IMG/VR virus record: IMGVR_UViG_3300023278_000857 | Location: 1,398-65,397 of that record | Source: a virus | Length of the DNA: 64,000 bases | Strand: one strand, 5' to 3' | Shown here: positions 7,120 through 64,000 of the stretch, piece after piece | Numbering within the stretch: the stretch's first letter is position 1 | Layout of the letters: each line of letters begins with the position of its first letter | Notes under the pieces: generated by a model | The model's database searches: none | What the model was told of the DNA's origin: nothing | Seen by the model: the letters and a program-made list of their open reading frames with translations, nothing else | Made by a program: the position numbers and the translations under genes

Positions 7120-7192
7120 ATTGTGTTAATATCCGTTTGGTTTTATTTATAGTTTTACTTCTTTTGGTTCCATCATATTATAATACCTCCCA

Positions 7193-18391: not shown

Positions 18392-18892
18392 ATGAAAAGT
18401 TTAAAGCAATATTTGGCAGAATCTGAGAAAACATATAACTTCAGACTACGTACTGTGGCTGAAATGTCAGATGATCAACTAGATAAATTAGAGAAGCACT
18501 TAGCAAGATACAATGTAGAAAGCGTAAGTTCTCCTAAGACTAGTATTATTCAAAGAAGTCCAGCTGGATTTGGCGATATTGGTCCAAGTGCAGTATTGAC
18601 TATGGAAATTGTAACACACCTACCATGTACTCCAAATGTAATGCAAGAAGAAGTTGCCGCGGCAACTGGTATTCACATTGGCGCAATTAGAATATATAAT
18701 GAGGGTGAGTTTATCGATGAGGAAGAAGATTTAGAAAACTCTACTGAAAAAGATAGCAAAAGTGTATTAGCAGATGCTGATTACAGTGAAGCTGAAAAAG
18801 TAGAACATAAAGATAATTTTGGAAATGAATTTGTTTCTAACTTTGTTAAGAACTTACCTAAATCAGAACTAGCAACAGAGTATAAGGTATAA
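18392..18892 (+). CDS. Putative head-internal protein with capsid-targeting-like N-terminus
   Basis: MKSLKQYLAE|S; late promoter ATAAATA upstream. Confidence 0.55.
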   Translation: MKSLKQYLAESEKTYNFRLRTVAEMSDDQLDKLEKHLARYNVESVSSPKTSIIQRSPAGFGDIGPSAVLTMEIVTHLPCTPNVMQEEVAAATGIHIGAIRIYNEGEFIDEEEDLENSTEKDSKSVLADADYSEAEKVEHKDNFGNEFVSNFVKNLPKSELATEYKV

Positions 18893-19518: not shown

Positions 19519-20277
19519 ATGGCACATTCAAAAATAGACAATACATTTAATAGAGCAATGGATAAACTAACAGAACTTAGTAGTGTATTCCGTGAAGATG
19601 GAAAACTAGCTGAAGCATGTGGAAGTGATTGCGATTTAAATGGAGTTAGATCTGCTTTTGAAGAACTAATGGGAGCAATGCGTGAAGCACACACAGAAGC
19701 AACCATGGAAGAGTCAGTAACTGAAGATGCTGGCAAAGTTGGCTACATGGAAATGTTCTTTACAGACCGTGATGGTGGTGAAGTTAGTTATGAAGTTGAA
19801 GTTACACTTAACAATGGTAAGCTAGACGTTACTGGCCCTATGCCAGGCCCAGAAGACGACCTATATTGGGATGACGCAGACATTGATGAGCAACTACGTG
19901 ATGCAATGGCTGATCCAAGTGTTATTACTTGGATGAACGAAGCCATGGGCGCACCAGACTACAACCCATCACGTGGTGAATATGATAGTAACCGCGAATA
20001 TGGAATGTTTAGTGACGAAGGCAATGCTGAAGTTGCTGAACTTGTAGACGATATTGTTAAACGACATGAAGCTGGTGAATTTGATAGTCCAGAGCGTGCT
20101 ATTGATGCCGCTATGTCAGACTTAATGACCCTGTCAGATGATAACGATGATTTTGGAGAAGCGTCTGATACAGATGTTAGAGATCAAGTAGCACGTGACT
20201 TAGACAGTCGTATTGGTCGTGATAGTGGATTTGGTGAAGCTATCGAATATATGAAAAAATTAGCAGGAATAGAATAA
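19519..20277 (+). CDS. Acidic putative prohead core/internal protein
   Basis: Highly acidic; ends YMKKLAGIE. Confidence 0.55.
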   Translation: MAHSKIDNTFNRAMDKLTELSSVFREDGKLAEACGSDCDLNGVRSAFEELMGAMREAHTEATMEESVTEDAGKVGYMEMFFTDRDGGEVSYEVEVTLNNGKLDVTGPMPGPEDDLYWDDADIDEQLRDAMADPSVITWMNEAMGAPDYNPSRGEYDSNREYGMFSDEGNAEVAELVDDIVKRHEAGEFDSPERAIDAAMSDLMTLSDDNDDFGEASDTDVRDQVARDLDSRIGRDSGFGEAIEYMKKLAGIE

Positions 20278-20621
20278 TGAAATCATTTACTGAATATTTA
20301 AACGAAGGAACTAAAGGTTGTTCTGATTGTGAATACATGAAAGACGAAACTGATGGTGAAATTGACACATGTGATGAGTGTGCTGCTGAGAAGCGTGAAA
20401 AAACTAATGAAGCTGGCGGATACTACACCCAACCAATATACGATATGATCGAAGAGCATGGTATTGATAAAGTAATGCACGAACTACTAACTGCCTTAGA
20501 CGCAGATGTTATACAAGCCGCACTGTCTAGAATGGCAAAAAATTTAGATGAAGCAACAAATGATGAGCATACACACGCACACGAAGAATTAGATTACTTG
20601 CGCAAACTAGCGGGTATATAA
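20277..20621 (+). CDS. Putative head-internal protein
   Basis: MKSFTEYLNE|G; two CxxC pairs; ends YLRKLAGI. Confidence 0.55.
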   Translation: MKSFTEYLNEGTKGCSDCEYMKDETDGEIDTCDECAAEKREKTNEAGGYYTQPIYDMIEEHGIDKVMHELLTALDADVIQAALSRMAKNLDEATNDEHTHAHEELDYLRKLAGI

Positions 20622-20716: not shown

Positions 20717-22273
20717 ATGTCAGTAGATACAAAACTAACCAAAACCCCATATCAAAGAGAAAAGTATACAAGTGAGCAACTGCAAGAACTTGCTAGGTGT
20801 ACTATTGATCCACAACACTTTATTACAGAGTACTGTTGGATTCAGCATCCTACTAAAGGACGTTTAAAGTTTGATCTCTTTGATTATCAGCGTGGACTGT
20901 TAGATAGTTACCACGATAACAGATATAGTATTGCGCTCATTAGTAGACAAATGGGTAAGTCAACAGCGGCGGCGGCATACTTACTATGGTATGCGATGTT
21001 TATGCCTGACCAAACTATCCTTATTGCGGCACACAAATACAGTGGCGCACAAGAGATTATGCAACGTATACGATTTGCTTACGAATTACTACCAAACTTT
21101 ATACGAGCAGGTGTTACCGCATATAACAAAGGTAGTTTAGAATTTGACAATGGTAGCCGTATTGTAGCACAAGCAACTACTGAAAATACTGGACGTGGTT
21201 TGTCTATCTCACTAGCATACTTAGACGAGTTTGCGTTTGTGCGACCTACCATTGCCCGTGAATTTTGGACAGCATTGTCACCAACACTTAGTACAGGTGG
21301 TAAATGTATTATTACAAGTACACCAAACCAAGACGATGACCAATTTGCCCAAATTTGGCGTTCAGCACTAAAAACTACTGATGCTTACGGTAATGAACGT
21401 TTAGTAGGTGAGAATGGATTTAAAGCATACAGTGCTGATTGGACATTTCATCCAGATAGAGACCAAGAATGGGCAGACGTAGAACAAGGTAAGATTGGTG
21501 AAGAACGTTTCCGTCGTGAACACTTAAATGAATTTATTGCGTTTGATGAAACACTTATTGATAGCTTAAAACTAACGCTATTAGAACATAAAGATGTTTA
21601 TAAAAAGACAGGACAGGTGCGTTGGTATCGTCCAATACAAAACGGAAAAACTTATATAGCAGGACTTGATCCTAGTTTAGGTACAGGAGGCGACAATGCC
21701 GCAATACAAGTTTATGAATTACCAGGTATGCGACAAGTTGCTGAATGGATGCACAACAAAACGCCAATACAACAGCAAATTAAAATACTACGTGGAATGT
21801 TAGCTGATATACAAACAGGCGCACCAGAAAGTGAAATCTACTGGAGTGTAGAGAATAATACACTTGGAGAAGCAGCACTAGTAGTAATTAATGAAATGGG
21901 CGAAGAGAATATAGCTGGTACATTTATTAGTGAACCACGTAAGTCTGGTTCAAGTAGAGGTTATAGAAAAGGGTTTACAACTACAAATAAAAGTAAACTT
22001 GCTGCTTGTAGTAAATTTAAAAACTGGATTGAAGTTGATAAAATGGAAATTGCTAGTAGTACATTGTTACGTGAAACAAAAACATTCATTGCTCGTGGTG
22101 CTAGTTATGCCGCAAAAGAAGGCGAAACAGATGATTTAGTAATGGCTGCACTACTTGTTGTACGTGTTGCTCAGCAAGTAGCGCAATATGATGAAGTTAC
22201 ATATAATGAGTTAAAAGATAGTTTTGGTGAAGAAGAAGACCTCGCTCCTATGCCATTTACGTTTTTGGTATAA
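20717..22273 (+). CDS. gp17: Terminase large subunit
   Basis: Walker A SRQMGKST, Walker B YLDEFAF, STPN coupling motif, RNase H-like GLDPS and DDLVMA. Confidence 0.95.
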   Translation: MSVDTKLTKTPYQREKYTSEQLQELARCTIDPQHFITEYCWIQHPTKGRLKFDLFDYQRGLLDSYHDNRYSIALISRQMGKSTAAAAYLLWYAMFMPDQTILIAAHKYSGAQEIMQRIRFAYELLPNFIRAGVTAYNKGSLEFDNGSRIVAQATTENTGRGLSISLAYLDEFAFVRPTIAREFWTALSPTLSTGGKCIITSTPNQDDDQFAQIWRSALKTTDAYGNERLVGENGFKAYSADWTFHPDRDQEWADVEQGKIGEERFRREHLNEFIAFDETLIDSLKLTLLEHKDVYKKTGQVRWYRPIQNGKTYIAGLDPSLGTGGDNAAIQVYELPGMRQVAEWMHNKTPIQQQIKILRGMLADIQTGAPESEIYWSVENNTLGEAALVVINEMGEENIAGTFISEPRKSGSSRGYRKGFTTTNKSKLAACSKFKNWIEVDKMEIASSTLLRETKTFIARGASYAAKEGETDDLVMAALLVVRVAQQVAQYDEVTYNELKDSFGEEEDLAPMPFTFLV

Positions 22274-22300: not shown

Positions 22301-23665
22301 ATGTTGAGTTCAGAATTAGTTGCAGAAAAGATGTTTAAAATACTCAAAGGCAACGGTCATGATTTAAAATTGTATACTGATCAAGGTGCTGATACAGTAG
22401 ATCCTTCAGTGGCTAGACGATTTTATATAATAGACAATGGAACTATGATTAGTTTAGATGAAACTGAAAATACTCGTAATATAAAAGTGAGTTTAGGATC
22501 AAATGTAGATCATCAATCAATAAAAGAAACATTGGGACAAATTAAAAGTTTAGCCAATCGTAGCATTATTGAATACACACTAAAAAATTATACTAAGTCA
22601 ATTGAACCAAAAGATTTCGACTACCAAGCTCAAAAGGTAAAAGATATGAATCAAGATACAGTAAATGAAGGCATCGGAGCCGCATACGGAAGTAGCAAAA
22701 GCAGCTACCAAAAATTAGAAAGTGCTAGACTTGTTATTAAACATAACAAAGCAGTGAATGAAGAACAACGTGGATCACGTAGTAGAAACATTCAAGCCAT
22801 CTACATTGAAAACAGCGAAGGCGAACGTTACAAGTTTCCAAGTAATAACTTAGCAGGCGGTAGAGCTATGCTACGTCACGTACAAGCTGGTGGTAATCCA
22901 ATGGATGACTTCGGAAAGCATATCGCAGAACAATGTTCAGAATTAAAGAAACTTAAAGAGTTTAGACGTTATAGTGAAAAGAATGGACTTGTTAACGAAG
23001 ATACAGCAGATATTGTAGAAGCGGTTATTGGACGTATTAACAGTATACGTGAAACATTAAATCGTATGAAGGGCGCAAGAACCTATTCATCAATGATTGA
23101 AGCATTTACGGCCAGTGATGAGCAACTGGACGAAGATGGACTAGACGATATCAAAACAAAATTTACAGTACATCACTTTGATGAAAATGTAGAAGGCGCA
23201 CTACCTTATGTTCAGTCACTTGTAAGAGAGATGCAAGCAGTACGTGAACACAATACAAAAGTAGCAGAAACAATCAACAACCTTGTAAGCGTTGTTGAAA
23301 ACAGTGGTAAAACAGTTTGGGTTAAAGAAGGCACCGACATTGTCGGCGATCCTGAAAATCCAATGAACCACACATTTGAGAATTCTTCAGCACGAGCGCA
23401 ACTAGGCGCAGTGATGGAGTATATTGCTAACGTTCTTGATGAGAGCGAAAGCACAATGTCGAATTGTCTTGCAGAAGCAAGTAAATTGGTTGACAGCATC
23501 AACGACGATGCTATACTGGGTAAATCAGCAAAAGCACTTGCTTCGCTGATGCCTAAACTACAGCCAACACACAATGAGACACCAGTACATGCTGAAACTA
23601 ATCAATGGGAAGACGATATCAATACCGTACTTGAAAACTACGATATTAATAAACTTTTTACTTGA
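22301..23665 (+). CDS. Hypothetical, probably head/virion protein
   Basis: 454-aa ORF behind late promoter TATAAATA; several (V/L)xE processing-like sites. Confidence 0.65.
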   Translation: MLSSELVAEKMFKILKGNGHDLKLYTDQGADTVDPSVARRFYIIDNGTMISLDETENTRNIKVSLGSNVDHQSIKETLGQIKSLANRSIIEYTLKNYTKSIEPKDFDYQAQKVKDMNQDTVNEGIGAAYGSSKSSYQKLESARLVIKHNKAVNEEQRGSRSRNIQAIYIENSEGERYKFPSNNLAGGRAMLRHVQAGGNPMDDFGKHIAEQCSELKKLKEFRRYSEKNGLVNEDTADIVEAVIGRINSIRETLNRMKGARTYSSMIEAFTASDEQLDEDGLDDIKTKFTVHHFDENVEGALPYVQSLVREMQAVREHNTKVAETINNLVSVVENSGKTVWVKEGTDIVGDPENPMNHTFENSSARAQLGAVMEYIANVLDESESTMSNCLAEASKLVDSINDDAILGKSAKALASLMPKLQPTHNETPVHAETNQWEDDINTVLENYDINKLFT

Positions 23666-23690: not shown

Positions 23691-23779
23691 AGTGATAATA
23701 AGTACATTGTCACTTAGGCAAACTTAGGCAAAAGTTGCATTACGCAACACACATAGGCAAACATATTAGGAGAATAACT

Positions 23780-24808
23780 ATGGCATCATTGGCAGAAATT
23801 AAAGCAAAACTACAAGCACAGGACAACAGCGGTCCAAGCAAACAAAGCGGCGGTGGCGATAACGCAATTTACCCGTTTTGGAATATCCCAGAAAATTCAA
23901 CAAGTGTAATTCGTTTCCTTCCAGATGGAGATACGAGTAATACTTTCTTTTGGCGTGAGCGTCAAATGATTCGCATGGAGTTTCAAGGAATTGAAGGACA
24001 ACCAGACAGTCGTCGTTGTGTTGTAAACGTTCCATGTAATGAAATGTGGGGACCAGTTGGAAGCTGTCCAGTTCTTTCAGAAGTACGACAGTGGTTTAAA
24101 GATCCAAGTCTTGAAGACATGGGCCGTAAGTATTGGAAAAAACGTTCATACGTATTCCAAGGTTTTGTAACTGAGAACTCACTTGATGAGGAATCTCCAG
24201 AAAATCCAATCCGTCGATTCGTAATTAATCCAAGTATCTTCAATATTATTAAAGGTGCTCTAATGAGCAGTGACTTTGAAGAACTACCTACAGATTACGA
24301 AGCTGGTACAGACTTCCGTCTTACTAAAACAACAAAAGGCCAATACGCAGATTATTCAACTAGTGGCTGGGCTCGTCGAGAGCGTAGTTTGGATAGTAAC
24401 GAACGTGCAGCAATTGAAACACACGGATTGTATAATCTAAATGACTATCTTCCAAAGCAACCAAGTGAAGCAGAGTTGGCAGTAATTGCTGAAATGTTTG
24501 AAGCTAGTGTTGATGGTAAAATGTATGATCCAGTACGTTGGGGTAATTTTTATCGCCCAGCAGGTGTACAAATTGATACGTCAAATAGTATGCCTAACAA
24601 TGGTAGTGCGCCAACAGCGGTATCTACTCCAGTAGCAACACCAGCACCACAGCCAGTGGCAGTATCTGCTCCAGTAGCAGAAGCAACTACTGATACAGGT
24701 TGGCAAGCACCTACTCCTGCGCCAACACCAACACCTGCTCCAGTAGCAGCTGAAGGTGAAAAGCCAAGTGCACAGGACATCTTAGCAGCAATCCGCTCAA
24801 GAGCATAA
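23780..24808 (+). CDS. gp32: Single-stranded DNA-binding protein (T4 gp32-like)
   Basis: AGGAG before ATG23780; IRFLP, Zn ligands C...CP, YWKKR, DF.L.K...ADYS; Pro/Ala-rich tail. Confidence 0.88.
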   Translation: MASLAEIKAKLQAQDNSGPSKQSGGGDNAIYPFWNIPENSTSVIRFLPDGDTSNTFFWRERQMIRMEFQGIEGQPDSRRCVVNVPCNEMWGPVGSCPVLSEVRQWFKDPSLEDMGRKYWKKRSYVFQGFVTENSLDEESPENPIRRFVINPSIFNIIKGALMSSDFEELPTDYEAGTDFRLTKTTKGQYADYSTSGWARRERSLDSNERAAIETHGLYNLNDYLPKQPSEAELAVIAEMFEASVDGKMYDPVRWGNFYRPAGVQIDTSNSMPNNGSAPTAVSTPVATPAPQPVAVSAPVAEATTDTGWQAPTPAPTPTPAPVAAEGEKPSAQDILAAIRSRA

Positions 24809-24871: not shown

Positions 24872-25996
24872 ATGGCACGACCATTTGATATTAGTAAATT
24901 CCGTAAGAGTATTACAAAAGCGGTACCCGGACTAAGTGTCGGGTTTAATGATCCAGATACTTGGATTTCAACAGGTAATTATACACTAAACAAACTTATT
25001 AGTGGAGACTTTAACAAAGGTATTCCACTAGGCAAAGTATCAGTACTAGCTGGTGAATCAGGCGCAGGCAAATCATATATTGCGGCTGGCAACATTGTTA
25101 AACAAGCACAACTTCAGAACATTTTTGTTGTGTTAATTGATACTGAAAACGCACTAGATGAGACTTGGTTACATGCACTGGATGTAGATACTAGTCCTGA
25201 AAAATTGCTAAAACTTAACTTAGCAATGATTGACGATGTAGCCAAAGTTATGAGTGATTTCATGACAGACTACAAAAAAGATTACGCAGATACAGACAAG
25301 GACGAACGTCCTAAAGTATTGTTTGTGATTGACTCATTAGGCATGATGTTGACACCAACTGATGTTAAACAGTTTGAAGCAGGTGACATGAAAGGTGACC
25401 TTGGACGTAAGCCCAAAGCATTAACATCGCTTGTTCGTAACACTGTTAACATGTTGGGCGAATACAATGTAGGGCTAATGGCAACTAACCACACATACGC
25501 ATCACAAGATATGTTTGACCCAGATGATAAGATTTCAGGCGGACAAGGCTTTATCTATGCTAGTAGTATTGTGGTAGCAATGCGCAAGTTAAAACTAAAA
25601 ACTGATTCAGACGGCAATAAGACTTCACAAGTACATGGTATTAGAGCGGCATGTAAAGTAATGAAAACACGTTATGCTAAACCGTTTGAAAGTGTACAAG
25701 TGGAAATTCCATATGAAACTGGTATGAGTCCATATAGTGGTCTTGTTGAGTTTTTGGAAGCAAAAGATGTACTCAAGAAAAGCGGCAACAGTTTAGAATA
25801 CACTAGCCCGACAACAGGCGAAGTAATTAAAATGTTCCGTAAACCTTGGAATGCTAACAAAGACGGCGCCTTAGATCTTATTATGTCAGAATGGGACGAT
25901 AAAGTCGCTGATGCCGTAAAAGAAGATATTGATGTAGATGAACTAAATAACGAGAACACATTATCTGAGGAAACTGAATCATATGAAACTAAGTGA
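24872..25996 (+). CDS. uvsX: RecA-like recombinase UvsX
   Basis: GESGAGKS P-loop, IDTENALD, VIDSLG, GGQGFIYASS. Confidence 0.92.
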   Translation: MARPFDISKFRKSITKAVPGLSVGFNDPDTWISTGNYTLNKLISGDFNKGIPLGKVSVLAGESGAGKSYIAAGNIVKQAQLQNIFVVLIDTENALDETWLHALDVDTSPEKLLKLNLAMIDDVAKVMSDFMTDYKKDYADTDKDERPKVLFVIDSLGMMLTPTDVKQFEAGDMKGDLGRKPKALTSLVRNTVNMLGEYNVGLMATNHTYASQDMFDPDDKISGGQGFIYASSIVVAMRKLKLKTDSDGNKTSQVHGIRAACKVMKTRYAKPFESVQVEIPYETGMSPYSGLVEFLEAKDVLKKSGNSLEYTSPTTGEVIKMFRKPWNANKDGALDLIMSEWDDKVADAVKEDIDVDELNNENTLSEETESYETK

Positions 25997-41979: not shown

Positions 41980-42999
41980 ATGATAGTTTTAGATTTTGTA
42001 CGCCAGAGCATTCCTGGTGGCTGGAAACAGTCCCCAAGTGGATGGACAAGTGGTAATTGTCCAATGTGCCATACTCGTGGACACAGTAGAGATACTCGTG
42101 GACGTGGCGGACTAATGTTCCAGGACGATAAAGTTCAATACAACTGTTTTAACTGTAATTACAAAACAGGTTGGAGCCCTGGTAAACGTATTAACACAAT
42201 GTTATCTGATTTACTAGTAGCGTTTGGTGCTGACCCAGCACAAATACAACGAGTTAATTTTGAACTGCTTAAAGAGAACGAAAAAGATCAAGTAGCACAA
42301 CAGTTTATTTCAACTACTGAACGTAAAGAAAAAGCTAAAATTACATGGCAACCCATGGAATTGCCAACTAACGCAACTACTTTTGATAAATGGGATACTG
42401 ATACACTAACTCCAAGACAACTAGAAAGTTTTATAAACGCAGTACAGTATGTTGAAGAGCGTGGAATGAGCTTCTATGATGGTTGGCAGTGGACACCAGA
42501 AAGCCATTTCAGAAATCGTATCATATTGCCGTTTTACTATAAAGGAAAAATAGTAGGGTATACAGCACGTTGGGTAGGAAAAACTCCTGACAAAGCTACA
42601 CCAAAATACTATCATCAGATGCCTAAACACTTTGTTTATAATATAGATAAACAACGTACACATAAGTATACGATCGTTACAGAAGGTCAAATGGACGCAC
42701 TATTAGTAAATGGCATTGCTACTAGCGGTAATACACCAAGTAACGTACAGTGTGATATTATTGATGATCTAAAAAAAGAAGTTATAGTTGTGCCAGACGC
42801 AGATAAAGCAGGCATGGACTTGGTTAAAACAGCAATCCGTAGAGGATGGAACGTAAGTTTTCCCCCTTGGGAAGACTGTAAAGATGCGGCAGATGCTGCT
42901 GTAAAATATGGTAGATTATTTACAGTGAGGAGTATTTTAGACAGTGCTGAGAGTAATTCAACAAAAATACAACTACTAGCAAAGGGATACTGTAGGTAA
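41980..42999 (+). CDS. gp61: DNA primase (DnaG/gp61-like)
   Basis: N-terminal Zn finger CPMC...CFNC, TOPRIM IVTEGQMDA and PDADKAG. Confidence 0.88.
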   Translation: MIVLDFVRQSIPGGWKQSPSGWTSGNCPMCHTRGHSRDTRGRGGLMFQDDKVQYNCFNCNYKTGWSPGKRINTMLSDLLVAFGADPAQIQRVNFELLKENEKDQVAQQFISTTERKEKAKITWQPMELPTNATTFDKWDTDTLTPRQLESFINAVQYVEERGMSFYDGWQWTPESHFRNRIILPFYYKGKIVGYTARWVGKTPDKATPKYYHQMPKHFVYNIDKQRTHKYTIVTEGQMDALLVNGIATSGNTPSNVQCDIIDDLKKEVIVVPDADKAGMDLVKTAIRRGWNVSFPPWEDCKDAADAAVKYGRLFTVRSILDSAESNSTKIQLLAKGYCR

Positions 43000-43000
43000 T

Positions 43001-43231
43001 ATGTTTAAACCAATAAGTGCTTATAGTGATTTACAAAGTTATTGGACTAAGCATTTTGCTTGGACACCAACACGTAGTGATCATAGCGGAAAGTTTATTT
43101 GGTTGACAAATTACTGGGAATACGCTATAACTATGGATATGAATGGCGCAGTACCACGCAAAGGTGATGCTTGGCGAATGATCTACACTCGAGAGGAATA
43201 TATATTGAAGAAGTTAACAAATAATGAGTGA
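43001..43231 (+). CDS. Hypothetical Trp-rich protein
   Basis: Coupled between primase and helicase. Confidence 0.6.
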   Translation: MFKPISAYSDLQSYWTKHFAWTPTRSDHSGKFIWLTNYWEYAITMDMNGAVPRKGDAWRMIYTREEYILKKLTNNE

Positions 43232-44609
43232 AGAGTACACAGAAGATTTACAAAAGTTATATCTAGAGTTTTTACTTGCTGACAAAGATTTGTTTGTACG
43301 CTGTAATGCGATTACAAATAGCAAATACTTTGTTCGTAAGTATCAGCCTGTTATGGACTTTATACAAGAACATGTTGAAGGTTATAATGACTTACCAACA
43401 CATGAACAAATTAAAGCTAAAGTAAGAATTGAATTTGACGATGTAAGAGCAAAGATTACTGATGACCATAAAAAATGGTTTATGGATGAATACGAAAAGT
43501 TTTGTAGACACAAAGCACTTGAAGGTGCTATCTTGGAAAGTGCTGATAAATTAGAACGGCATGAGTACGGAAGTGTTGAGCAACTGATTAAAGATGCTGT
43601 TGGTATTGGCCTAGCAAAAGACTTTGGACTTAACTACTGGGATGATCCAGCAGGACGTATACAAGCAATTAAAGACAATCGTGGACAAAATAGTACTGGT
43701 TGGGAGAGCTTGGACAAAGTATTGTATGGTGGATTTAATCCAGGCGAACTAAACATCTTTGCTGGTGGTAGTGGTAGTGGTAAAAGTTTGTTTATGCAAA
43801 ACATGGCACTCAACTGGAGTTTGGCTGGCAAGAATGTAGTGTATGTTAGTTTAGAGCTTAGTGAAGAACTATGTAGTATGCGTATTGATGCTATGGTTAC
43901 AAACCAGAGTACTAAAGATGTTATGCGTAATGCTGATGATACAGCACTTAAAGTTAGAATGGCTAGTAAAAAAGCAGGCGTACTACAAATGATACAAATG
44001 CCAAATGGTGCCACAGTTAATGATATTAAGGCATATATTAAAGAATATCAGATTCAAAACGACATTAAAATTGATGGATTGTTTGTAGACTATTTGGATC
44101 TTATGATGCCTGTTAGTGTTAAAGTTAATCCAAGCGATCAGTTTATTAAAGACAAGTATGTAAGTGAAGAACTACGTAACTTGGCTATTGAGCTTAACAT
44201 ATTGTTTGTTACAGCCTCACAGTTGAATCGTGGTGCTGTTGATGAAGTAGAGTTTGACCACAGTCACATTGCTGGTGGTATTAGTAAGATTAATACAGCA
44301 GACAACCTAATCGGTATCTTTAGCTCAAGAGCAATGCGTGAGCGTGGTAGAGTACAGATCCAGTTTATGAAAACACGTAGTAGTAGTGGTGTTGGGTCTA
44401 AACTAGACTTGGGCTATGATATGAATACACTTAGAATTACAGACTTGGATGAAGATGAACAAGGCGAAGCTGGACAAGTGGCAAGTATCTATCAGAGCTT
44501 AAAGAATAAAGCAACTGTTAGTCCTGCTGGTACTGAGTCAGCACAACCTGATAATACCGCAGTGGAAAACGCCGCAAGATTACAAAATTTACTTAAACGA
44601 AGGGAATAG
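43224..44609 (+). CDS. gp41: Replicative DnaB-like helicase (gp41-like)
   Basis: GGSGSGKS P-loop, SLEL, VDYLDLM, TASQLNR, KTRSS. Confidence 0.9.
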   Translation: MSEEYTEDLQKLYLEFLLADKDLFVRCNAITNSKYFVRKYQPVMDFIQEHVEGYNDLPTHEQIKAKVRIEFDDVRAKITDDHKKWFMDEYEKFCRHKALEGAILESADKLERHEYGSVEQLIKDAVGIGLAKDFGLNYWDDPAGRIQAIKDNRGQNSTGWESLDKVLYGGFNPGELNIFAGGSGSGKSLFMQNMALNWSLAGKNVVYVSLELSEELCSMRIDAMVTNQSTKDVMRNADDTALKVRMASKKAGVLQMIQMPNGATVNDIKAYIKEYQIQNDIKIDGLFVDYLDLMMPVSVKVNPSDQFIKDKYVSEELRNLAIELNILFVTASQLNRGAVDEVEFDHSHIAGGISKINTADNLIGIFSSRAMRERGRVQIQFMKTRSSSGVGSKLDLGYDMNTLRITDLDEDEQGEAGQVASIYQSLKNKATVSPAGTESAQPDNTAVENAARLQNLLKRRE

Positions 44610-44801
44610 TTGTTAAAACATTGATGCCGTTGACCTTATGTGTTGTCTATAATATGATGTACGAACAACGGGCGAAGATATTAGCCTGAATTGCTGCCCG
44701 CATCCCATAGTTGGTATTAATTCTTATTGCCTATGGATCCTAAGTTCACGATCAGGAAATGCAAAGTTGCCATAAGTACTATCCACCAATGTTTTAACAA
44801 C
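44609..44801. ncRNA. 193-nt element bounded by 15-bp terminal inverted repeats; structured RNA candidate
   Basis: GTTGTTAAAACATTG (44609-44623) / CAATGTTTTAACAAC (44787-44801) with several internal stems. Confidence 0.55.
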
Positions 44802-44803
44802 AA

Positions 44804-44815
44804 TATTTATAAATA
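44804..44815. promoter_or_regulatory. Palindromic overlapping divergent late promoters
   Basis: TATTTATAAATA is its own reverse complement, giving ATAAATA on both strands. Confidence 0.6.
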
Positions 44816-44823
44816 GTATTGAT

Positions 44824-45060
44824 ATGAAACGTAAAACGAGATCTATTTTAGAAGAAATTAATTCGATGTCACCAAAGCGTGATAGACGGCAACTTGTTGA
44901 AGCAAATGCCGCTCAGGTAATTGCTACGGCAATTAACCTAATTGAATTAATTAATGAAACATTTGATGACGAAACTGCTGCAGACTTGAATAAAAGATTA
45001 ATTAATTCAATTCGCACAAAGGATCCTCGGAAGTTTAAAAGAGGAGTATCAAAGCTGTGA
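44824..45060 (+). CDS. Small putative head-internal protein
   Basis: MKRKTRSILEE|; first gene of the late operon. Confidence 0.6.
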   Translation: MKRKTRSILEEINSMSPKRDRRQLVEANAAQVIATAINLIELINETFDDETAADLNKRLINSIRTKDPRKFKRGVSKL

Positions 45061-45845
45061 AGATTAAAGACATACTAGGCGGAATGAGCAAACGCAAAAT
45101 CCGTCGTGGAAGCCGTATTAAAAGATTAAGACAAGAAGATTTACATCTTAGAGAAGGTGGCAATGTATTTCCTGACAGCGTAGGATTTGATCACAAACTA
45201 ATACCTGGCATTATGAAATCAATTAATTCAGTACTGGCAAAAACTGGCAGTACTGCTATACCAATTGGTAGTGGAGCAACTCCAACACCTGGTAAAGTAA
45301 GCGGCGACTTGGATATGATTGTAGACGTTAATCAACTGAAACAACATTTTAATATGGAAGACGCTAAAGATGGTGATATCCGTAAAAAACTACGTCAAGT
45401 ATTTGACTTAGCAGGATTTAACACAGGGCAAAGTGGCACTAGTGTACACGTAGAAGTTCCAATTGGTGATAATACACACCAAGTAGATGTTATGGTAGTA
45501 CCAAATGCTGGCAATGCGGCAAAGTTTCATACACACAGTATTCCACAAGGTTCAAAGTGGAAAGGTGTAAACAAGCAAATAGCATTGGCTAATTTAGCTA
45601 GAAAACAAAACTTATTGTGGTCAAACTTCCAAGGTCTATTTAAAAGACTGGAAAATGGTAAAAAAGACCCAAATGGATTAATTACAGATAACATTGATAA
45701 AATCGCACAGATATTATTAGGCCCTAATGCCACAGGAAAAGACATGGGCAGCGTTGAGAGTATTATGGCAGCGTTGGGTAAAGAAGCAGGTGATGCACTA
45801 CTGGTAGATTTAAGAAATGATCCTAACTGGAAAGAACTAGAATGA
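45057..45845 (+). CDS. Pol-beta-superfamily nucleotidyltransferase-like protein
   Basis: IGSGATPTPGKVSGDLDMIVD (hGS...DxD) and QVDVM third Asp; basic leader ending HLRE|G. Confidence 0.65.
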   Translation: MKIKDILGGMSKRKIRRGSRIKRLRQEDLHLREGGNVFPDSVGFDHKLIPGIMKSINSVLAKTGSTAIPIGSGATPTPGKVSGDLDMIVDVNQLKQHFNMEDAKDGDIRKKLRQVFDLAGFNTGQSGTSVHVEVPIGDNTHQVDVMVVPNAGNAAKFHTHSIPQGSKWKGVNKQIALANLARKQNLLWSNFQGLFKRLENGKKDPNGLITDNIDKIAQILLGPNATGKDMGSVESIMAALGKEAGDALLVDLRNDPNWKELE

Positions 45846-46918
45846 AAGCCCGTCAATTTTTAGCAGAAGCAGCCAAGGTAGGGCGTGAATATCAACACCT
45901 CGAAGACCTTGTGTTTGCTGAAGGCAGTGCCGGCGCCCTACGAGCGGCGAGTATATTACAAAGGCTCGGACAAGATTCAAATGATGTAGCTATTAAATGG
46001 GACGGGAACCCTACTATCTATTGGGGAAGAGAAGCAGACGGAACGTTTGTACTAACTGGTAAAAATGGTTGGGGTAAAAATAAAAGTACTAGCAGTGATG
46101 ATCTAAAATCATTTGTTATGAGTACTGGTAAAGGCGAAGACTGGCGACAGGAATTTGCTAATAACATGGGCGATGTATTTGACATCATGCAGCGTAACAC
46201 ACCAAATGATCTACGTGGCTTTATATATGGTGACTTATTGTACTCACCAAGCAAACCATACGTATCAAACAACGACTCATATCAGTTTGAACCAAATAGT
46301 GTTCTATATACTGTAGATGCTAATAGTGATCTTGGCAAGAGAGTTGGCGCAAGTAGTATTGGTATTGCGGCGCACAGTATATACGGAGAGTTTGGTGACA
46401 AAACTGGCACTCCTATTAAAGATACAAAAAGAATTAATACTAATGAAGTGGTAGTTATGGGACAAACATACGTACCGCATCAAGCTAGTGTAGATACTAG
46501 TTCAGTAGAAGCCATTATAAAAGCAACTAATGCTAATGCTCAAGCAATTGATAACTGGTTAACACCTGAACAAGGGCTTAGTAACAAAGGTAATATCATT
46601 TATACATACGTAAATCAAATGGTAAAACAAGGTAAATTAAAGCAATTACAAAGTGGTTTTTTCGATTGGTTAAAAACTAGTAAAGTAAGTGCTGGGCAAC
46701 AAGCAAAGTTAATGGCAGGAGATTCCAATGGACTGTCAGCAATTTTAGGCTTAGTTGTACAAATTATGACAGTAAAAAATAATATTATTGATCAGCTAGA
46801 CAATGCTCCAGCTGATGTAACAGCAACTACAAAAGGTGAAAGTGGTGGCGAAGGTTATGTAGTAGGTAGAGATAAGATTAAACTTGTGCCAAGACATCGC
46901 TGGACACCAAACTTATAA
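45842..46918 (+). CDS. ATP-dependent ligase-fold (RNA-ligase-like) protein
   Basis: Motif I IKWDGN, motif III IYGDL, motif IV GEGYVV, motif V IKLV; N-terminus MKARQFLAE|A. Confidence 0.6.
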   Translation: MKARQFLAEAAKVGREYQHLEDLVFAEGSAGALRAASILQRLGQDSNDVAIKWDGNPTIYWGREADGTFVLTGKNGWGKNKSTSSDDLKSFVMSTGKGEDWRQEFANNMGDVFDIMQRNTPNDLRGFIYGDLLYSPSKPYVSNNDSYQFEPNSVLYTVDANSDLGKRVGASSIGIAAHSIYGEFGDKTGTPIKDTKRINTNEVVVMGQTYVPHQASVDTSSVEAIIKATNANAQAIDNWLTPEQGLSNKGNIIYTYVNQMVKQGKLKQLQSGFFDWLKTSKVSAGQQAKLMAGDSNGLSAILGLVVQIMTVKNNIIDQLDNAPADVTATTKGESGGEGYVVGRDKIKLVPRHRWTPNL

Positions 46919-46926
46919 ATACTAGC

Positions 46927-47712
46927 ATGGAAAAACAATATACAGCAAAGCAATGGTCAGAAATTGAAGGCGGACATACTATGAGCGAAAATAGTAAACC
47001 TGAATTTGGGTTTATTAACGATCTTAATGAAGCCAGTAAAATGTACAGAACTCGTCAACAACTTGAAACAGTTGATTTGAGAAATACACTAGACTTTGCG
47101 TTTATGAATTTAATAACAATGCACATAATGTCACAAAATCCAAGTACTAAACTAATAGCGCAAGATTATGCTAAAAGAACACTTGCTGGTGGTGGTAACT
47201 TTAAAAATTATCGCAGAGATGGAAATGATCTTTATCACGCACTTCATAAAATATCAACTAAAACTGGTATTGATGCCAATGAAAAAGGTTTAGCATCTAA
47301 AGTTAGTATACCAGATCAACAATTAAAAACATATTTGAGATCTATAGCTGTTGGACAAGATTCCAAACAAGCTAGTGGATTATTCATGCGTCTTGAACGT
47401 AACTTTGACATCAAAGAAGCTAACTATAAGTCTTTAAGACGAATGGCAACTAACTGGCAAGGATTACAGGCAGGACAAAAACAATTATCAGCAACTAGAA
47501 TAATTCAATATTATAGAGCTAATGCTATACGCAGTGAATTATATGAACCATTTAAACAATTTAGTAAAGCAGGTGGATTAATTAATCCAGATATTTCTAG
47601 CGCAGAGCCAAAAATTACTGCTAGAAAAATTGCCAGAAAAGCAGCCATTGGTACTGCGGCGTTTGCTGGTGGGTTTGCTGGTGGTAGAGCATTTGGTAGA
47701 AGTCTAGTTTAA
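46927..47712 (+). CDS. Putative head-internal/ejected protein with C-terminal glycine-zipper-like helix
   Basis: ATAAATA-N5-ATG; DLNE|A site; ends AAIGTAAFAGGFAGGRAFGRSLV. Confidence 0.6.
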   Translation: MEKQYTAKQWSEIEGGHTMSENSKPEFGFINDLNEASKMYRTRQQLETVDLRNTLDFAFMNLITMHIMSQNPSTKLIAQDYAKRTLAGGGNFKNYRRDGNDLYHALHKISTKTGIDANEKGLASKVSIPDQQLKTYLRSIAVGQDSKQASGLFMRLERNFDIKEANYKSLRRMATNWQGLQAGQKQLSATRIIQYYRANAIRSELYEPFKQFSKAGGLINPDISSAEPKITARKIARKAAIGTAAFAGGFAGGRAFGRSLV

Positions 47713-47720
47713 GGTGTCAT

Positions 47721-48125
47721 TTGATACAACAATACATAGCTTACACGTTAGTTGATATTACAAATAATCGTAATACTAAGAATACTTCAGCGTATAATCA
47801 AAAACAAAATCTTAATACATTTATACAACTAGCTGGCATGAGAAGCCAGCCAATATCTATCGCAGTTAAGTGTCTTAAAGCACAAGATGTAGTTGATTAC
47901 CGCTTCGGATCAGCACATAAAGGACTACATCATGTGTGGAAAATTGAATTTGCAGTAGAGCATGCCGACGTTTATATGTTAAATGATAATCCAGTACATT
48001 TCTTAGAAAACGATTTTGATGGTGTAGCATTTACGCCTTATTTGACAGAAACCGCAAACTTTATCACTAATACATTTGAGACTTATGATGAAAAACTATT
48101 AAACATATACTTTAAGAAAATGTAG
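47721..48125 (+). CDS. Hypothetical protein
   Basis: 134 aa, TTG start. Confidence 0.6.
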   Translation: MIQQYIAYTLVDITNNRNTKNTSAYNQKQNLNTFIQLAGMRSQPISIAVKCLKAQDVVDYRFGSAHKGLHHVWKIEFAVEHADVYMLNDNPVHFLENDFDGVAFTPYLTETANFITNTFETYDEKLLNIYFKKM

Positions 48126-48858: not shown

Positions 48859-49251
48859 ATGAAGATATTTGATATTATCACTGAAGACAAAAAAACATGG
48901 ATGAAGGACGGTGTTGAAATGTGCAGCAAAGACTGTTGTGGACAACCTGTTACTGAATGTGAATGTGGTCCAGAATGTAAACATTGTGACTGTTACAAAG
49001 TTAATGAAGCATATGGTTTAGCTCAGGGTAGATCGAGTGCGGGTAAATTTGCTAATGATCAAAAAAATATGAATAAACGTATGAACAATACAATGGCAAA
49101 TACTAACCGAGAGCTTACAATTAAACAAACACAAATGAATAAAAATGCCAACAGAGATGCAAGACGTCTTCCTACTGGCACACCAAACCGTGCGGCGTAC
49201 GACAATATGCGTCAGGATTTACTAAGAGCCAGAGGGATACAAAACCAATGA
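48859..49251 (+). CDS. Putative head-internal protein with Cys cluster
   Basis: MKIFDIITE|D; CSKDCCGQPVTECECGPECKHCDC. Confidence 0.6.
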   Translation: MKIFDIITEDKKTWMKDGVEMCSKDCCGQPVTECECGPECKHCDCYKVNEAYGLAQGRSSAGKFANDQKNMNKRMNNTMANTNRELTIKQTQMNKNANRDARRLPTGTPNRAAYDNMRQDLLRARGIQNQ

Positions 49252-51517: not shown

Positions 51518-52183
51518 ATGTTAAAAATTACCACACCCTACCCGTATCAACAATTTAAACGTAAGAGCGTACACGGCAAACGTCTGTACGAAAATCCGTA
51601 TGGCGATCCTGTGCCTAGTGTTACTACTATCCTAAGTAAAACAAAGGATATGACACACCTTAATGCTTGGAAAAAGCGTGTAGGTGAAAAGAAAGCACAA
51701 CAAATTGTAACTGAAGCTGCTGGCGTAGGTTCAATAATGCACGAAATGTTGGAAGCATGGAGCCTTAACCAAGAGTACACAGGCAAAACTATGCTACAAG
51801 CCAAGATGATGGCAGAGACCGTTATAAAAAACGTAGAAGCTGACATTGACGAAGTTTGGGGTAGTGAAGTAAACTTGTGTTATCCAGGATTGTATGCTGG
51901 TACAACTGACTTGGTTGGTATGTACAAAGGCAAACCAACTATCATGGACTTTAAACAAACCAACAAGCCCAAGAAGCGTGAATGGATTGACGATTACTTT
52001 ATGCAAGCCGCCGCTTATGCCATGGCACACAATGAAATATTTGAAACAAAGATTGAGCATGCCGCTATCTTTATGTGTAGTCGAGACTTAGACTGGCAAT
52101 TATTTGAAGTAGGACCAGAAGAGTTTAAAGTTTGGGAAGAAAAGTGGGCCGGCAAAGTAGCAGAGTTTTATAACCTGTCATAA
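51518..52183 (+). CDS. PD-(D/E)XK exonuclease
   Basis: VPSVTTILS, G...H, YAGTTDLV, IMDFKQT, QAAAYAMA. Confidence 0.85.
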   Translation: MLKITTPYPYQQFKRKSVHGKRLYENPYGDPVPSVTTILSKTKDMTHLNAWKKRVGEKKAQQIVTEAAGVGSIMHEMLEAWSLNQEYTGKTMLQAKMMAETVIKNVEADIDEVWGSEVNLCYPGLYAGTTDLVGMYKGKPTIMDFKQTNKPKKREWIDDYFMQAAAYAMAHNEIFETKIEHAAIFMCSRDLDWQLFEVGPEEFKVWEEKWAGKVAEFYNLS

Positions 52184-63638: not shown

Positions 63639-64000
63639 ATGAAAATAAACGAAGTAATAAATCAACCACTTGAAGAAGGTCCAAACGACCCTCATATTTT
63701 TAAAGCAGTGTTTATGGCTGGTGGCCCTGGATCTGGAAAGTCATACGTGGCTGGAAAGATGTTAGGCGGCACTGGCCTTAAATCTGTTAATAGTGATGAG
63801 ATTTATGAATATCTGGCACAGAAACAAGACATTGATTTAGGTGATCCGGCACAAGTGATCTCGCCACAAGGTCAAGAAGTACGTGGTAGAGCTAAAGAAC
63901 TTACACAAAAAAAACGTGGACACTATTTAGATGGTAGACTGGGTGTAGTAATTGATGGCACAGGTAAAGATGTTGACAAAGTAAAAAAAGATAGTCAAGC
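63639..64000 (+). CDS. P-loop kinase (zeta-toxin/PNK-like), 5' partial, with capsid-targeting-like N-terminus
   Basis: MKINEVINQPLEE|GPNDPHIFKAVFMAGGPGSGKS...VNSDEIYE...VIDGTG; ATAAATA-N5-ATG; runs off the window end. Confidence 0.7.
   Translation, partial: MKINEVINQPLEEGPNDPHIFKAVFMAGGPGSGKSYVAGKMLGGTGLKSVNSDEIYEYLAQKQDIDLGDPAQVISPQGQEVRGRAKELTQKKRGHYLDGRLGVVIDGTGKDVDKVKKDSQ

Follow-up and report, generated by a model that had tools for sequence, protein, structure and literature searches.

A miniature family X polymerase-like nucleotidyltransferase functionally linked to a DUF6267 protein in a marine giant phage: a tentative fill-and-seal end-repair pair, possibly carried in the head

Viruses are already known to pair a family X DNA polymerase (PolX) with a ligase. 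PgVPolX of Phaeocystis globosa virus joins a Pol beta core to an NAD+-dependent ligase domain and fills and seals base-excision-repair intermediates (PMC5537341), and Pol X and ligase of African swine fever virus (ASFV) act in base excision repair (PMC8450572). A further theme, predicted in jumbo phages, is that of RlaP, in which lost nucleotides are restored and the ends are then ligated (PMC7824862). As regards delivery, the capsid-targeting sequence (CTS) of phage T4 is MKTYQEFIAE (PMC8442874), and packaging and injection have been predicted for polyvalent proteins (Iyer et al., 2017, PMC5512222). Here we analyse 64,000 nt (the window; positions 1,398 to 65,397 of IMG/VR record IMGVR_UViG_3300023278_000857) from a 72.6 kb viral contig of an uncultured marine giant phage, in which an operon of three open reading frames (ORFs) encodes a nucleotidyltransferase (NTase) resembling a miniature PolX and a protein of family DUF6267. 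The two are functionally linked, and we tentatively read them as a late-transcribed, coupled fill-and-seal pair for end repair, probably loaded into the head, an account that as a whole we hold at slightly less than an even chance. The operon and the elements within it are:

44808-44815, + strand: TATAAATA motif, the T4-type late-promoter consensus, 9 nt before the first ATG of the operon
44824-45060, + strand: basic protein of 78 amino acids, pI 10.2 (phrog_11854, E = 3e-18)
45057-45845, + strand: miniature family X polymerase-like NTase, 262 amino acids, GTG start
45057-45155, + strand: N-terminal extension of the NTase (amino acids 1–33), beginning MKIKDIL, continuing as a very basic stretch and ending L-R-E
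45842-46918, + strand: DUF6267 protein, 358 amino acids (Pfam PF19782, E = 6e-28)
45842-45868, + strand: leader of the DUF6267 protein, MKARQFLAE, 9 residues (predicted local distance difference test score (pLDDT) 37)

The overlapping reading frames named in the original prediction are real: the three + strand ORFs are translationally coupled, with 4 nt overlaps of GTGA at 45057 and ATGA at 45842.

The NTase carries the Pol beta catalytic signature, hG[GS]...DxD and, two strands further on, a third Asp, and in an alignment of 45 homologues reaching down to 27% identity the sole invariant positions were G71, S72, D84, D86 and D144. An AlphaFold2 (AF2) model run on this 45-sequence alignment had a mean pLDDT of 90.6, with residues 35–262 at about 97 and residues 1–33 disordered (< 50). 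The top 50 Foldseek matches in the PDB were all Pol lambda (best E = 6e-8), and VIA-align, a structure search independent of Foldseek, ranked Pol beta first (Z 12.3, root-mean-square deviation (rmsd) 4.0, 176 residues aligned); ASFV Pol X scored Z 11.3 (rmsd 3.3) with 162 residues aligned of its 176-residue chain, and further matches were Leishmania Pol beta, Pol lambda, Thermus PolX and TdT. The PolX superpositions cover model residues 38–237, that is, the palm and the C-terminal thumb, whereas TUTases, CD-NTases, MenT and an archaeal CCA-adding enzyme align to a core of about 100 residues alone (Z 7–10). Because the PolX matches span palm and thumb and the other NTases match only the core, the protein is, on its predicted structure, a palm-plus-thumb mini-PolX of the ASFV type and not a CCA-adding-like or CD-NTase-like enzyme. 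The Pol beta fold that had been proposed from the sequence is thus borne out by the model, both structure searches and the invariant residues, while the kinship to CCA-adding enzymes or CD-NTases that had been put up for comparison reduces to the shared core.

Neither the 8 kDa dRP-lyase domain nor the helix-hairpin-helix fingers domain is found in the NTase, the alignments beginning at Pol beta residue 142; all that precedes the palm is the disordered 33-residue leader, and ASFV Pol X likewise has no 8 kDa or fingers domain. At the sequence level the NTase was assigned to no Pfam family. DNA_pol_B_palm stayed below threshold in the NTase family (3 of 45 members, best E = 0.016), and some neighbouring Atlas clusters have DNA_pol_B_palm or DNA_pol_B_thumb in 13–19% of their members. 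The RlaP profile PF10127 was absent from the Pfam scans and gave no match at E up to 1 on the window contig and four related contigs; tblastn of the NTase against the phage collection gave no match, nor did phmmer of the NTase or the DUF6267 protein against PDB sequences.

DUF6267 is a large viral family, with more than 2000 clusters at 90% identity, and a literature search returned no paper that mentions it. Across three clades with no more than 21–27% identity to the window protein, the invariant positions are K52, D54 and G55 (KWDG), G130-D131, F149/P151/N152/Y156, E337-G338 and K347. In an AF2 model (pLDDT 88.3; alignment of 35 sequences from the three clades) these motifs, which were assigned by pattern, lie on predicted beta-strands in the order of ligase motifs I, III, IIIa, IV and V; at G130-D131 an Asp occupies the position where ligases carry Glu. 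A helical insertion of about 110 residues precedes motif IV, and the protein ends 11 residues past motif V, where the model has a short helix. Foldseek matches in the PDB, at E = 0.02 or worse, were mostly Lig IV, archaeal DNA ligases, T4 Rnl1, Trl1 and Rnl3. VIA-align placed Naegleria RNA ligase first (Rnl5, 5cot; Z 6.0, 178 residues aligned), with Prochlorococcus marinus ligase at 5.9, followed by Trl1, Rhizobium phage ligase, REL1, Lig IV, T7 ligase and T4 Rnl1, Rnl2 and DNA ligase, and also ASFV ligase and the vaccinia capping enzyme; many ligases scored Z 4.3–5.9, with 140–194 residues aligned across the whole model. An AlphaFold Database (AFDB) cluster named 'RNA ligase domain-containing protein' matched with E = 8e-4. 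Because the motifs are invariant, follow the ligase order and lie on beta-strands, and because ligases dominate the weak fold matches, DUF6267 is likely, on its model, to be a ligase-type covalent nucleotidyltransferase with K52 of KWDG as its nucleotidylated residue.

Several results weigh against this assignment. The OB domain and motif VI are not present in the model. The fold scores (Z up to 6; Foldseek E >= 0.02 against the PDB) are in the range of chance arrangements, and unrelated helical proteins score alike in VIA-align. None of the 35 members matched Pfam DNA_ligase_A_M, RNA_ligase, RNA_lig_T4_1 or mRNA_cap_enzyme at E up to 10; the DUF6267 profile found only spurious low-complexity matches among PDB sequences (e.g. 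eS8); and hhalign of this profile against single sequences of T4 Rnl1, Rnl2 and DNA ligase was not significant, the Rnl1 comparison consisting of a 16-column overlap at motifs IV/V alone (E = 0.13). The ligase-like character claimed for the second protein in the original prediction therefore stands on the KWDG, GD, EG and K motifs, which show no variation between three distantly related clades; as to the Rnl2 fold proposed as a check, Rnl2 is among the weak VIA-align matches and Pfam and hhalign lend it no support. Among the DUF6267 homologues, P0139, P0140, P0144 and P0194 have a Cys-rich insert (CGKC...C.C) between leader and conserved core, and P0156–P0158 have some 100 inserted residues at the leader/core junction.

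The functional link between NTase and DUF6267 is the strongest result of this analysis. Searching the NTase against 1.84 billion cluster representatives returned 229 relatives; of the 64 listed representatives with 330 amino acids or more, 24 carry both NTase and DUF6267, in either domain order and with Pfam confirming several, which makes this by far the commonest fusion architecture. As separate genes they adjoin in 75 of the 80 IMG/VR loci of the window clade, the rest being cut by contig ends where checked. The order helicase, 78 amino acid protein, NTase, DUF6267, 261 amino acid protein, 134 amino acid protein was found in 56 of these 80 loci, the others having shorter runs in the same order. 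The two proteins are functionally linked, given fusions in both orders and adjacency in every complete locus of the clade.

Other partners occur as well. The NTase is absent from the cyanophage and DLP6-like clades of DUF6267, and in two annotated examples from these clades a HIGH-motif (cytidylyltransferase/NMNAT-like) enzyme lies 3' of DUF6267; fusions of DUF6267 to HIGH enzymes exist, as do triple fusions of HIGH NTase, PolX and DUF6267. The upstream neighbours of DUF6267 in P-TIM40 and DLP6, considered as NTase homologues, were rejected, having no similarity to the NTase or to each other. In the ESM Atlas, DUF6267 is fused to a Cu/Zn superoxide dismutase domain in a viral cluster of 65 members and to a cytidylyltransferase-like domain in a cluster of 78. 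Mini-PolX domains are in turn fused to Tad3 with DUF5661, to HIGH NTase with ART-PolyVal, to NUDIX, to GNAT and to a sigma-70 region 4 helix-turn-helix (P0354, P0389, P0388, P0282 and P0293); judged by sequence, these fusions form a domain network like that of polyvalent proteins. Fusion to such unrelated effectors as SodC, Tad3 and GNAT could reflect co-delivery rather than a shared reaction, a point against joint repair by the two enzymes.

The leader of the DUF6267 protein, MKARQFLAE, resembles the T4 CTS, which comprises about 10 residues ending in [IL]-x-E. It reads M-R/K-x-x-Q/E-F/I-L-x-E in the window clade and M-x-x-F-x-x-Y/F-L/I-x-E in the DLP6-like clade, where one homologue begins MKTFKKFIAE, and in some homologues inserts separate it from the core. 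As it is present or absent clade by clade, is followed by inserts and is unstructured in the model, the leader appears to be a separable tag. T4-CTS-like N-termini are found on 4 of the 92 genes in the window against 0.17 expected (Poisson P ~3e-5), and three further ORFs with such leaders are, from their N-termini, candidate head cargo:

18392-18892: ORF with leader MKSLKQYLAE
20277-20621: ORF with leader MKSFTEYLNE
48859-49251: ORF with leader MKIFDIITE

Two of these three closely precede the large terminase gene (20717-22273). In P-TIM40, gene 183 (L002 7171-8244), a HIGH nucleotidyltransferase beside a leaderless DUF6267, has the CTS-like start MRFLDFIKE.

The TATAAATA motif at 44808 is part of a palindrome, TATTTATAAATA, that reads TATAAATA on both strands. 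The window holds 10 copies against 8.45 expected, a total not above chance (copies stand, among others, at positions 7144, 12270, 16106, 22269, 41153, 44808, 46914, 49951 and 60244). As for their placement, eight of the nine + strand copies precede the start of an ORF in the same orientation by no more than about 35 nt; the ORF starts behind the motif are 12283, 16141, 22301, 41164, 44824, 46927 and 49983, with 7110 on the - strand. This placement suggests T4-type late promoters in the present jumbo phage. The 215 nt gap between helicase and operon (44609-44815) contains terminal inverted repeats, GTTGTTAAAACATTG and CAATGTTTTAACAAC, in addition to the palindrome, and an Rfam search of this intergenic element found no family.

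The 72.6 kb contig has a CheckV completeness of about 20%, so the genome would be roughly 350 kb. Close relatives of the NTase and DUF6267 proteins come from marine metagenomes, on contigs of up to 357 kb, and a search of the locus DNA against the phage collection gave no match. By its gene content and synteny the phage groups with the RaK2-type jumbo phages, distant relatives of T4. The neighbours of the operon are:

41980-42999: gp61-type primase, in the block directly upstream
43224-44609: gp41/DnaB-type helicase, between the primase and the three-ORF operon
46927-47712, + strand: basic protein of 261 amino acids, function unassigned, a conserved downstream neighbour with its own TATAAATA at 46914
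47721-48125, + strand: protein of 134 amino acids, function unassigned, a conserved downstream neighbour
51518-52183: exonuclease, 3' of the block with virion-protein homologues

Homologues of the 78 amino acid protein were found by tblastn in RaK2 (ORF129), fHe-Yen9-04 (g285), CBB, PA5oct and Phosso, always directly 3' of the gp41 helicase and annotated as a virion structural protein in RaK2-type jumbo phages. The block from 44824 onward is syntenic with the post-gp41 block that is annotated as virion structural proteins in RaK2 and fHe-Yen9-04, and several genes downstream of the operon are homologues of annotated virion proteins of RaK2-type phages; for the 261 amino acid protein, Pfam and PHROG scans gave no match. 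Elsewhere in the window, some 1.5 kb past the terminase gene and after an ORF of 454 amino acids (22301-23665), a weak gp32-like match (23735-24808; E = 0.0098, below the Pfam cut-off) is followed by a RecA/UvsX-like protein (24872-25996); with recombination genes near the terminase, structural and recombination genes appear to be interleaved in this phage.

Several independent features of this context are consistent with genes that are expressed late and products that enter the head. Relatives of the NTase also stand in polyvalent-protein architectures with ART-PolyVal, Tad3, NUDIX and GNAT. Overall, we regard the putative packaging of the enzymes into the head as somewhat favoured. Other observations count against it. 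The cyanophage homologues of DUF6267 have no leader, start at the conserved core and are annotated as hypothetical. The leader of the NTase (pI 11.6) is of a different kind from that of DUF6267, and most homologues are without it, starting 3–5 residues before EGGN. Its supposed cleavage site, HLRE|G, is the conserved domain start [LIVFM]-x-E-G-G-N, which is also present in leaderless homologues and at internal fusion junctions; the LxE is therefore intrinsic to the domain and no specific evidence of a protease site. A gp21-type protease (Peptidase_S77), present in RaK2, fHe-Yen9-04, DLP6, P-TIM40 and T4, was found neither on the 72.6 kb fragment nor on four related ones, 20–37% complete; NAD-ligase and Rnl2 families were likewise not found on these partial contigs. 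Finally, the NTase and DUF6267 genes directly follow primase and helicase. Protease-cleavable leaders had been claimed for both proteins; that of DUF6267 is modular and T4-CTS-like and may be cleaved, while the leader of the NTase gives no specific sign of a cleavage site; of a late operon of head proteins set apart from replication genes, the synteny with an annotated virion-protein block survives, and the separation does not, with primase and helicase immediately upstream.

What the pair would act upon, and where, admits other accounts. The original prediction favoured an injected tRNA-repair kit of the T4 Pnk/Rnl type, in which kinase, NTase and ligase restore tRNAs cut by PrrC/RloC-type anticodon nucleases, comparable to T4 Pnkp/Rnl1 and to pairs of RlaP NTase and RNA ligase. 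The kinase in question is:

63639-64000, + strand: P-loop kinase, 5' part, with the gene continuing beyond the window; N-terminus MKINEVINQPLEE-G

This P-loop protein is real, with 231 amino acids in the full contig and matches to AAA_33 (E = 6.6e-14) and Zeta_toxin (E = 1.2e-14), and leaders like its own, MKINE/D-IVKE-G, are also found on NTase fusion proteins P0282 and P0364. It is Pnk-like and carries a leader, 4 of 80 DLP6-like loci have a homologous kinase less than 5 kb from DUF6267, and the window has nine tRNA genes. DUF6267 resembles RNA ligases in having no OB domain, its best fold matches include Naegleria Rnl5, Trl1 and REL1 together with the AFDB 'RNA ligase domain' cluster, and for jumbo phages the pairing of RNA ligases with Pol beta NTases (RlaP) has been described as a theme (PMC7824862). 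However, the kinase is about 17 kb from the pair, a domain scan found no HAD 3'-phosphatase domain in it, and no end-healing phosphoesterase was seen among the scanned genes. The NTase is closest to family X DNA polymerases, matching them over palm and thumb and CCA-adding enzymes and TUTases over the core alone, and by Pfam it is not RlaP; DUF6267 matches no Rnl1, Rnl2 or DNA ligase Pfam family, and DNA ligases score nearly equal to RNA ligases against it. An injected tRNA-repair kit is thus an unlikely explanation.

We consider it similarly improbable that the enzymes stay unpackaged and serve late intracellular DNA repair or maturation, filling gaps and sealing nicks in replicated or recombined concatemers before packaging, with leaders that have no targeting role. 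PolX and ligase are the classical DNA-repair pair, the genes stand directly 3' of primase and helicase, and the leaderless P-TIM40 cyanophage homologue also follows gp41 among replication genes. Against this stand the modular leader of T4-CTS-like type, with such leaders over-represented among the N-termini of the window, the synteny of the block with annotated virion-protein genes, and the occurrence of relatives in polyvalent architectures predicted to be injected. A related jumbo-phage contig, G002, carries the same NTase/DUF6267 pair together with a canonical ATP-dependent DNA ligase (25342-25875; PF01068, E = 3.5e-12), so the role of replicative ligase alone does not account for DUF6267, and a missing replicative ligase is rejected as a general explanation.

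Least likely, and very unlikely as a whole, is a pair of independent injected effectors, with an NTase that nucleotidylylates a protein or small molecule or makes or caps a nucleotide signal and a DUF6267 that is a non-ligase adenylyltransferase of NAD+/nucleotide metabolism countering signalling or NAD-depletion defences: the fusions to ART-PolyVal, GNAT, NUDIX and the Thoeris inhibitor Tad3, the repeated occurrence of DUF6267 fused to or beside HIGH (NMNAT-like) nucleotidyltransferases, the Cu/Zn SOD fusion and the habit of polyvalent proteins of combining unrelated activities (PMC5512222) speak for it, but the NTase keeps the PolX thumb, which holds the nucleic acid substrate, PolX-DUF6267 is the most frequent architecture by far, and PADLOC gave no match on the NTase, DUF6267, the kinase and the two downstream proteins.

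Returning to the fill-and-seal pair, the analysis establishes the motifs and predicted folds, the link between the two proteins by fusion and synteny, the modularity of the leader and the presence of a late-promoter motif; catalysis, packaging and substrate are inferred. The mini-PolX NTase would add the missing nucleotide or nucleotides to a broken 3' end, and DUF6267, adenylylated on K52, would then seal the break. DUF6267, probably with its operon partners, would be loaded into the prohead through its T4-style capsid-targeting leader; the leader would be trimmed after Glu by a gp21-type protease, the enzymes would be released with the DNA, and the module could act before phage gene expression. 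As substrate we tentatively and narrowly put DNA nicks or gaps first, because of the PolX thumb, the viral precedents and the fusion to a sigma-70 region 4 helix-turn-helix; RNA or tRNA is a possible second, because DUF6267 is OB-less and RNA-ligase-like, a Pnk-like kinase is associated and RlaP/RNA-ligase pairs are a theme in jumbo phages; and something else again is less likely than either. A wider reading, which we think doubtful, is that marine T4-related and giant phages pack a polymerase-ligase kit by means of a T4-type leader, and that the kit, once injected with the genome, mends phage DNA or essential RNAs cut by host defence nucleases ahead of any phage gene expression; kinase and NMNAT-like enzyme would be additions in other phages, and the core ligase family, DUF6267, would be one that profiles do not link to known ligases.

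If DUF6267 is a ligase-type enzyme, it would represent a new branch of a textbook superfamily. A PolX and ligase pair in phages, often fused, extends the design of ASFV, giant algal viruses and eukaryotic single-strand-break repair, and compact polymerase-ligase fusions may be of use as reagents. Should the capsid really carry the enzymes, we would have a first case of nucleic acid repair enzymes delivered by a phage with its genome, and a new class of pre-emptive counter-defence.

Comparison with the described systems places the pair as follows. ASFV Pol X (O174L) and ligase (NP419L; PDB 5hr9, 6imk) are alike in joining a palm-plus-thumb PolX to a viral ligase for short-gap filling and sealing; they differ in their eukaryotic host and in that the ligase, a canonical ATP-dependent DNA ligase, includes an OB domain. 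DUF6267 lacks this domain and any sequence similarity, and the phage pair, unlike the ASFV set, has N-terminal leaders and a late-promoter motif. PgVPolX of Phaeocystis globosa virus unites PolX and ligase in one polypeptide, as do the 24 PolX-DUF6267 fusions, but with a LigA-type NAD+-dependent ligase and dRP-lyase activity, the window NTase being without an 8 kDa domain. RlaP with Rnl1/Rnl2 and T4 Pnkp offers a Pol beta superfamily NTase beside a ligase with a P-loop kinase nearby; here, by contrast, the NTase is not Pfam RlaP, DUF6267 falls outside Rnl1/Rnl2 and there is no phosphatase module. The gp21-trimmed T4 proteins IPI-III and Alt share a leader some 10 residues long with [IL]-x-E at its end, the late-promoter motif and the T4-type morphogenetic lineage; their cargo consists of small basic inhibitors or an ADP-ribosyltransferase, and in the present phage the putative cargo would be nucleic acid enzymes. 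Polyvalent proteins, lastly, resemble the relatives of both domains, which are found in long proteins with ART-PolyVal, GNAT, NUDIX, Tad3 and HIGH NTase, whereas in the window the two domains are separate single-domain proteins of one operon.

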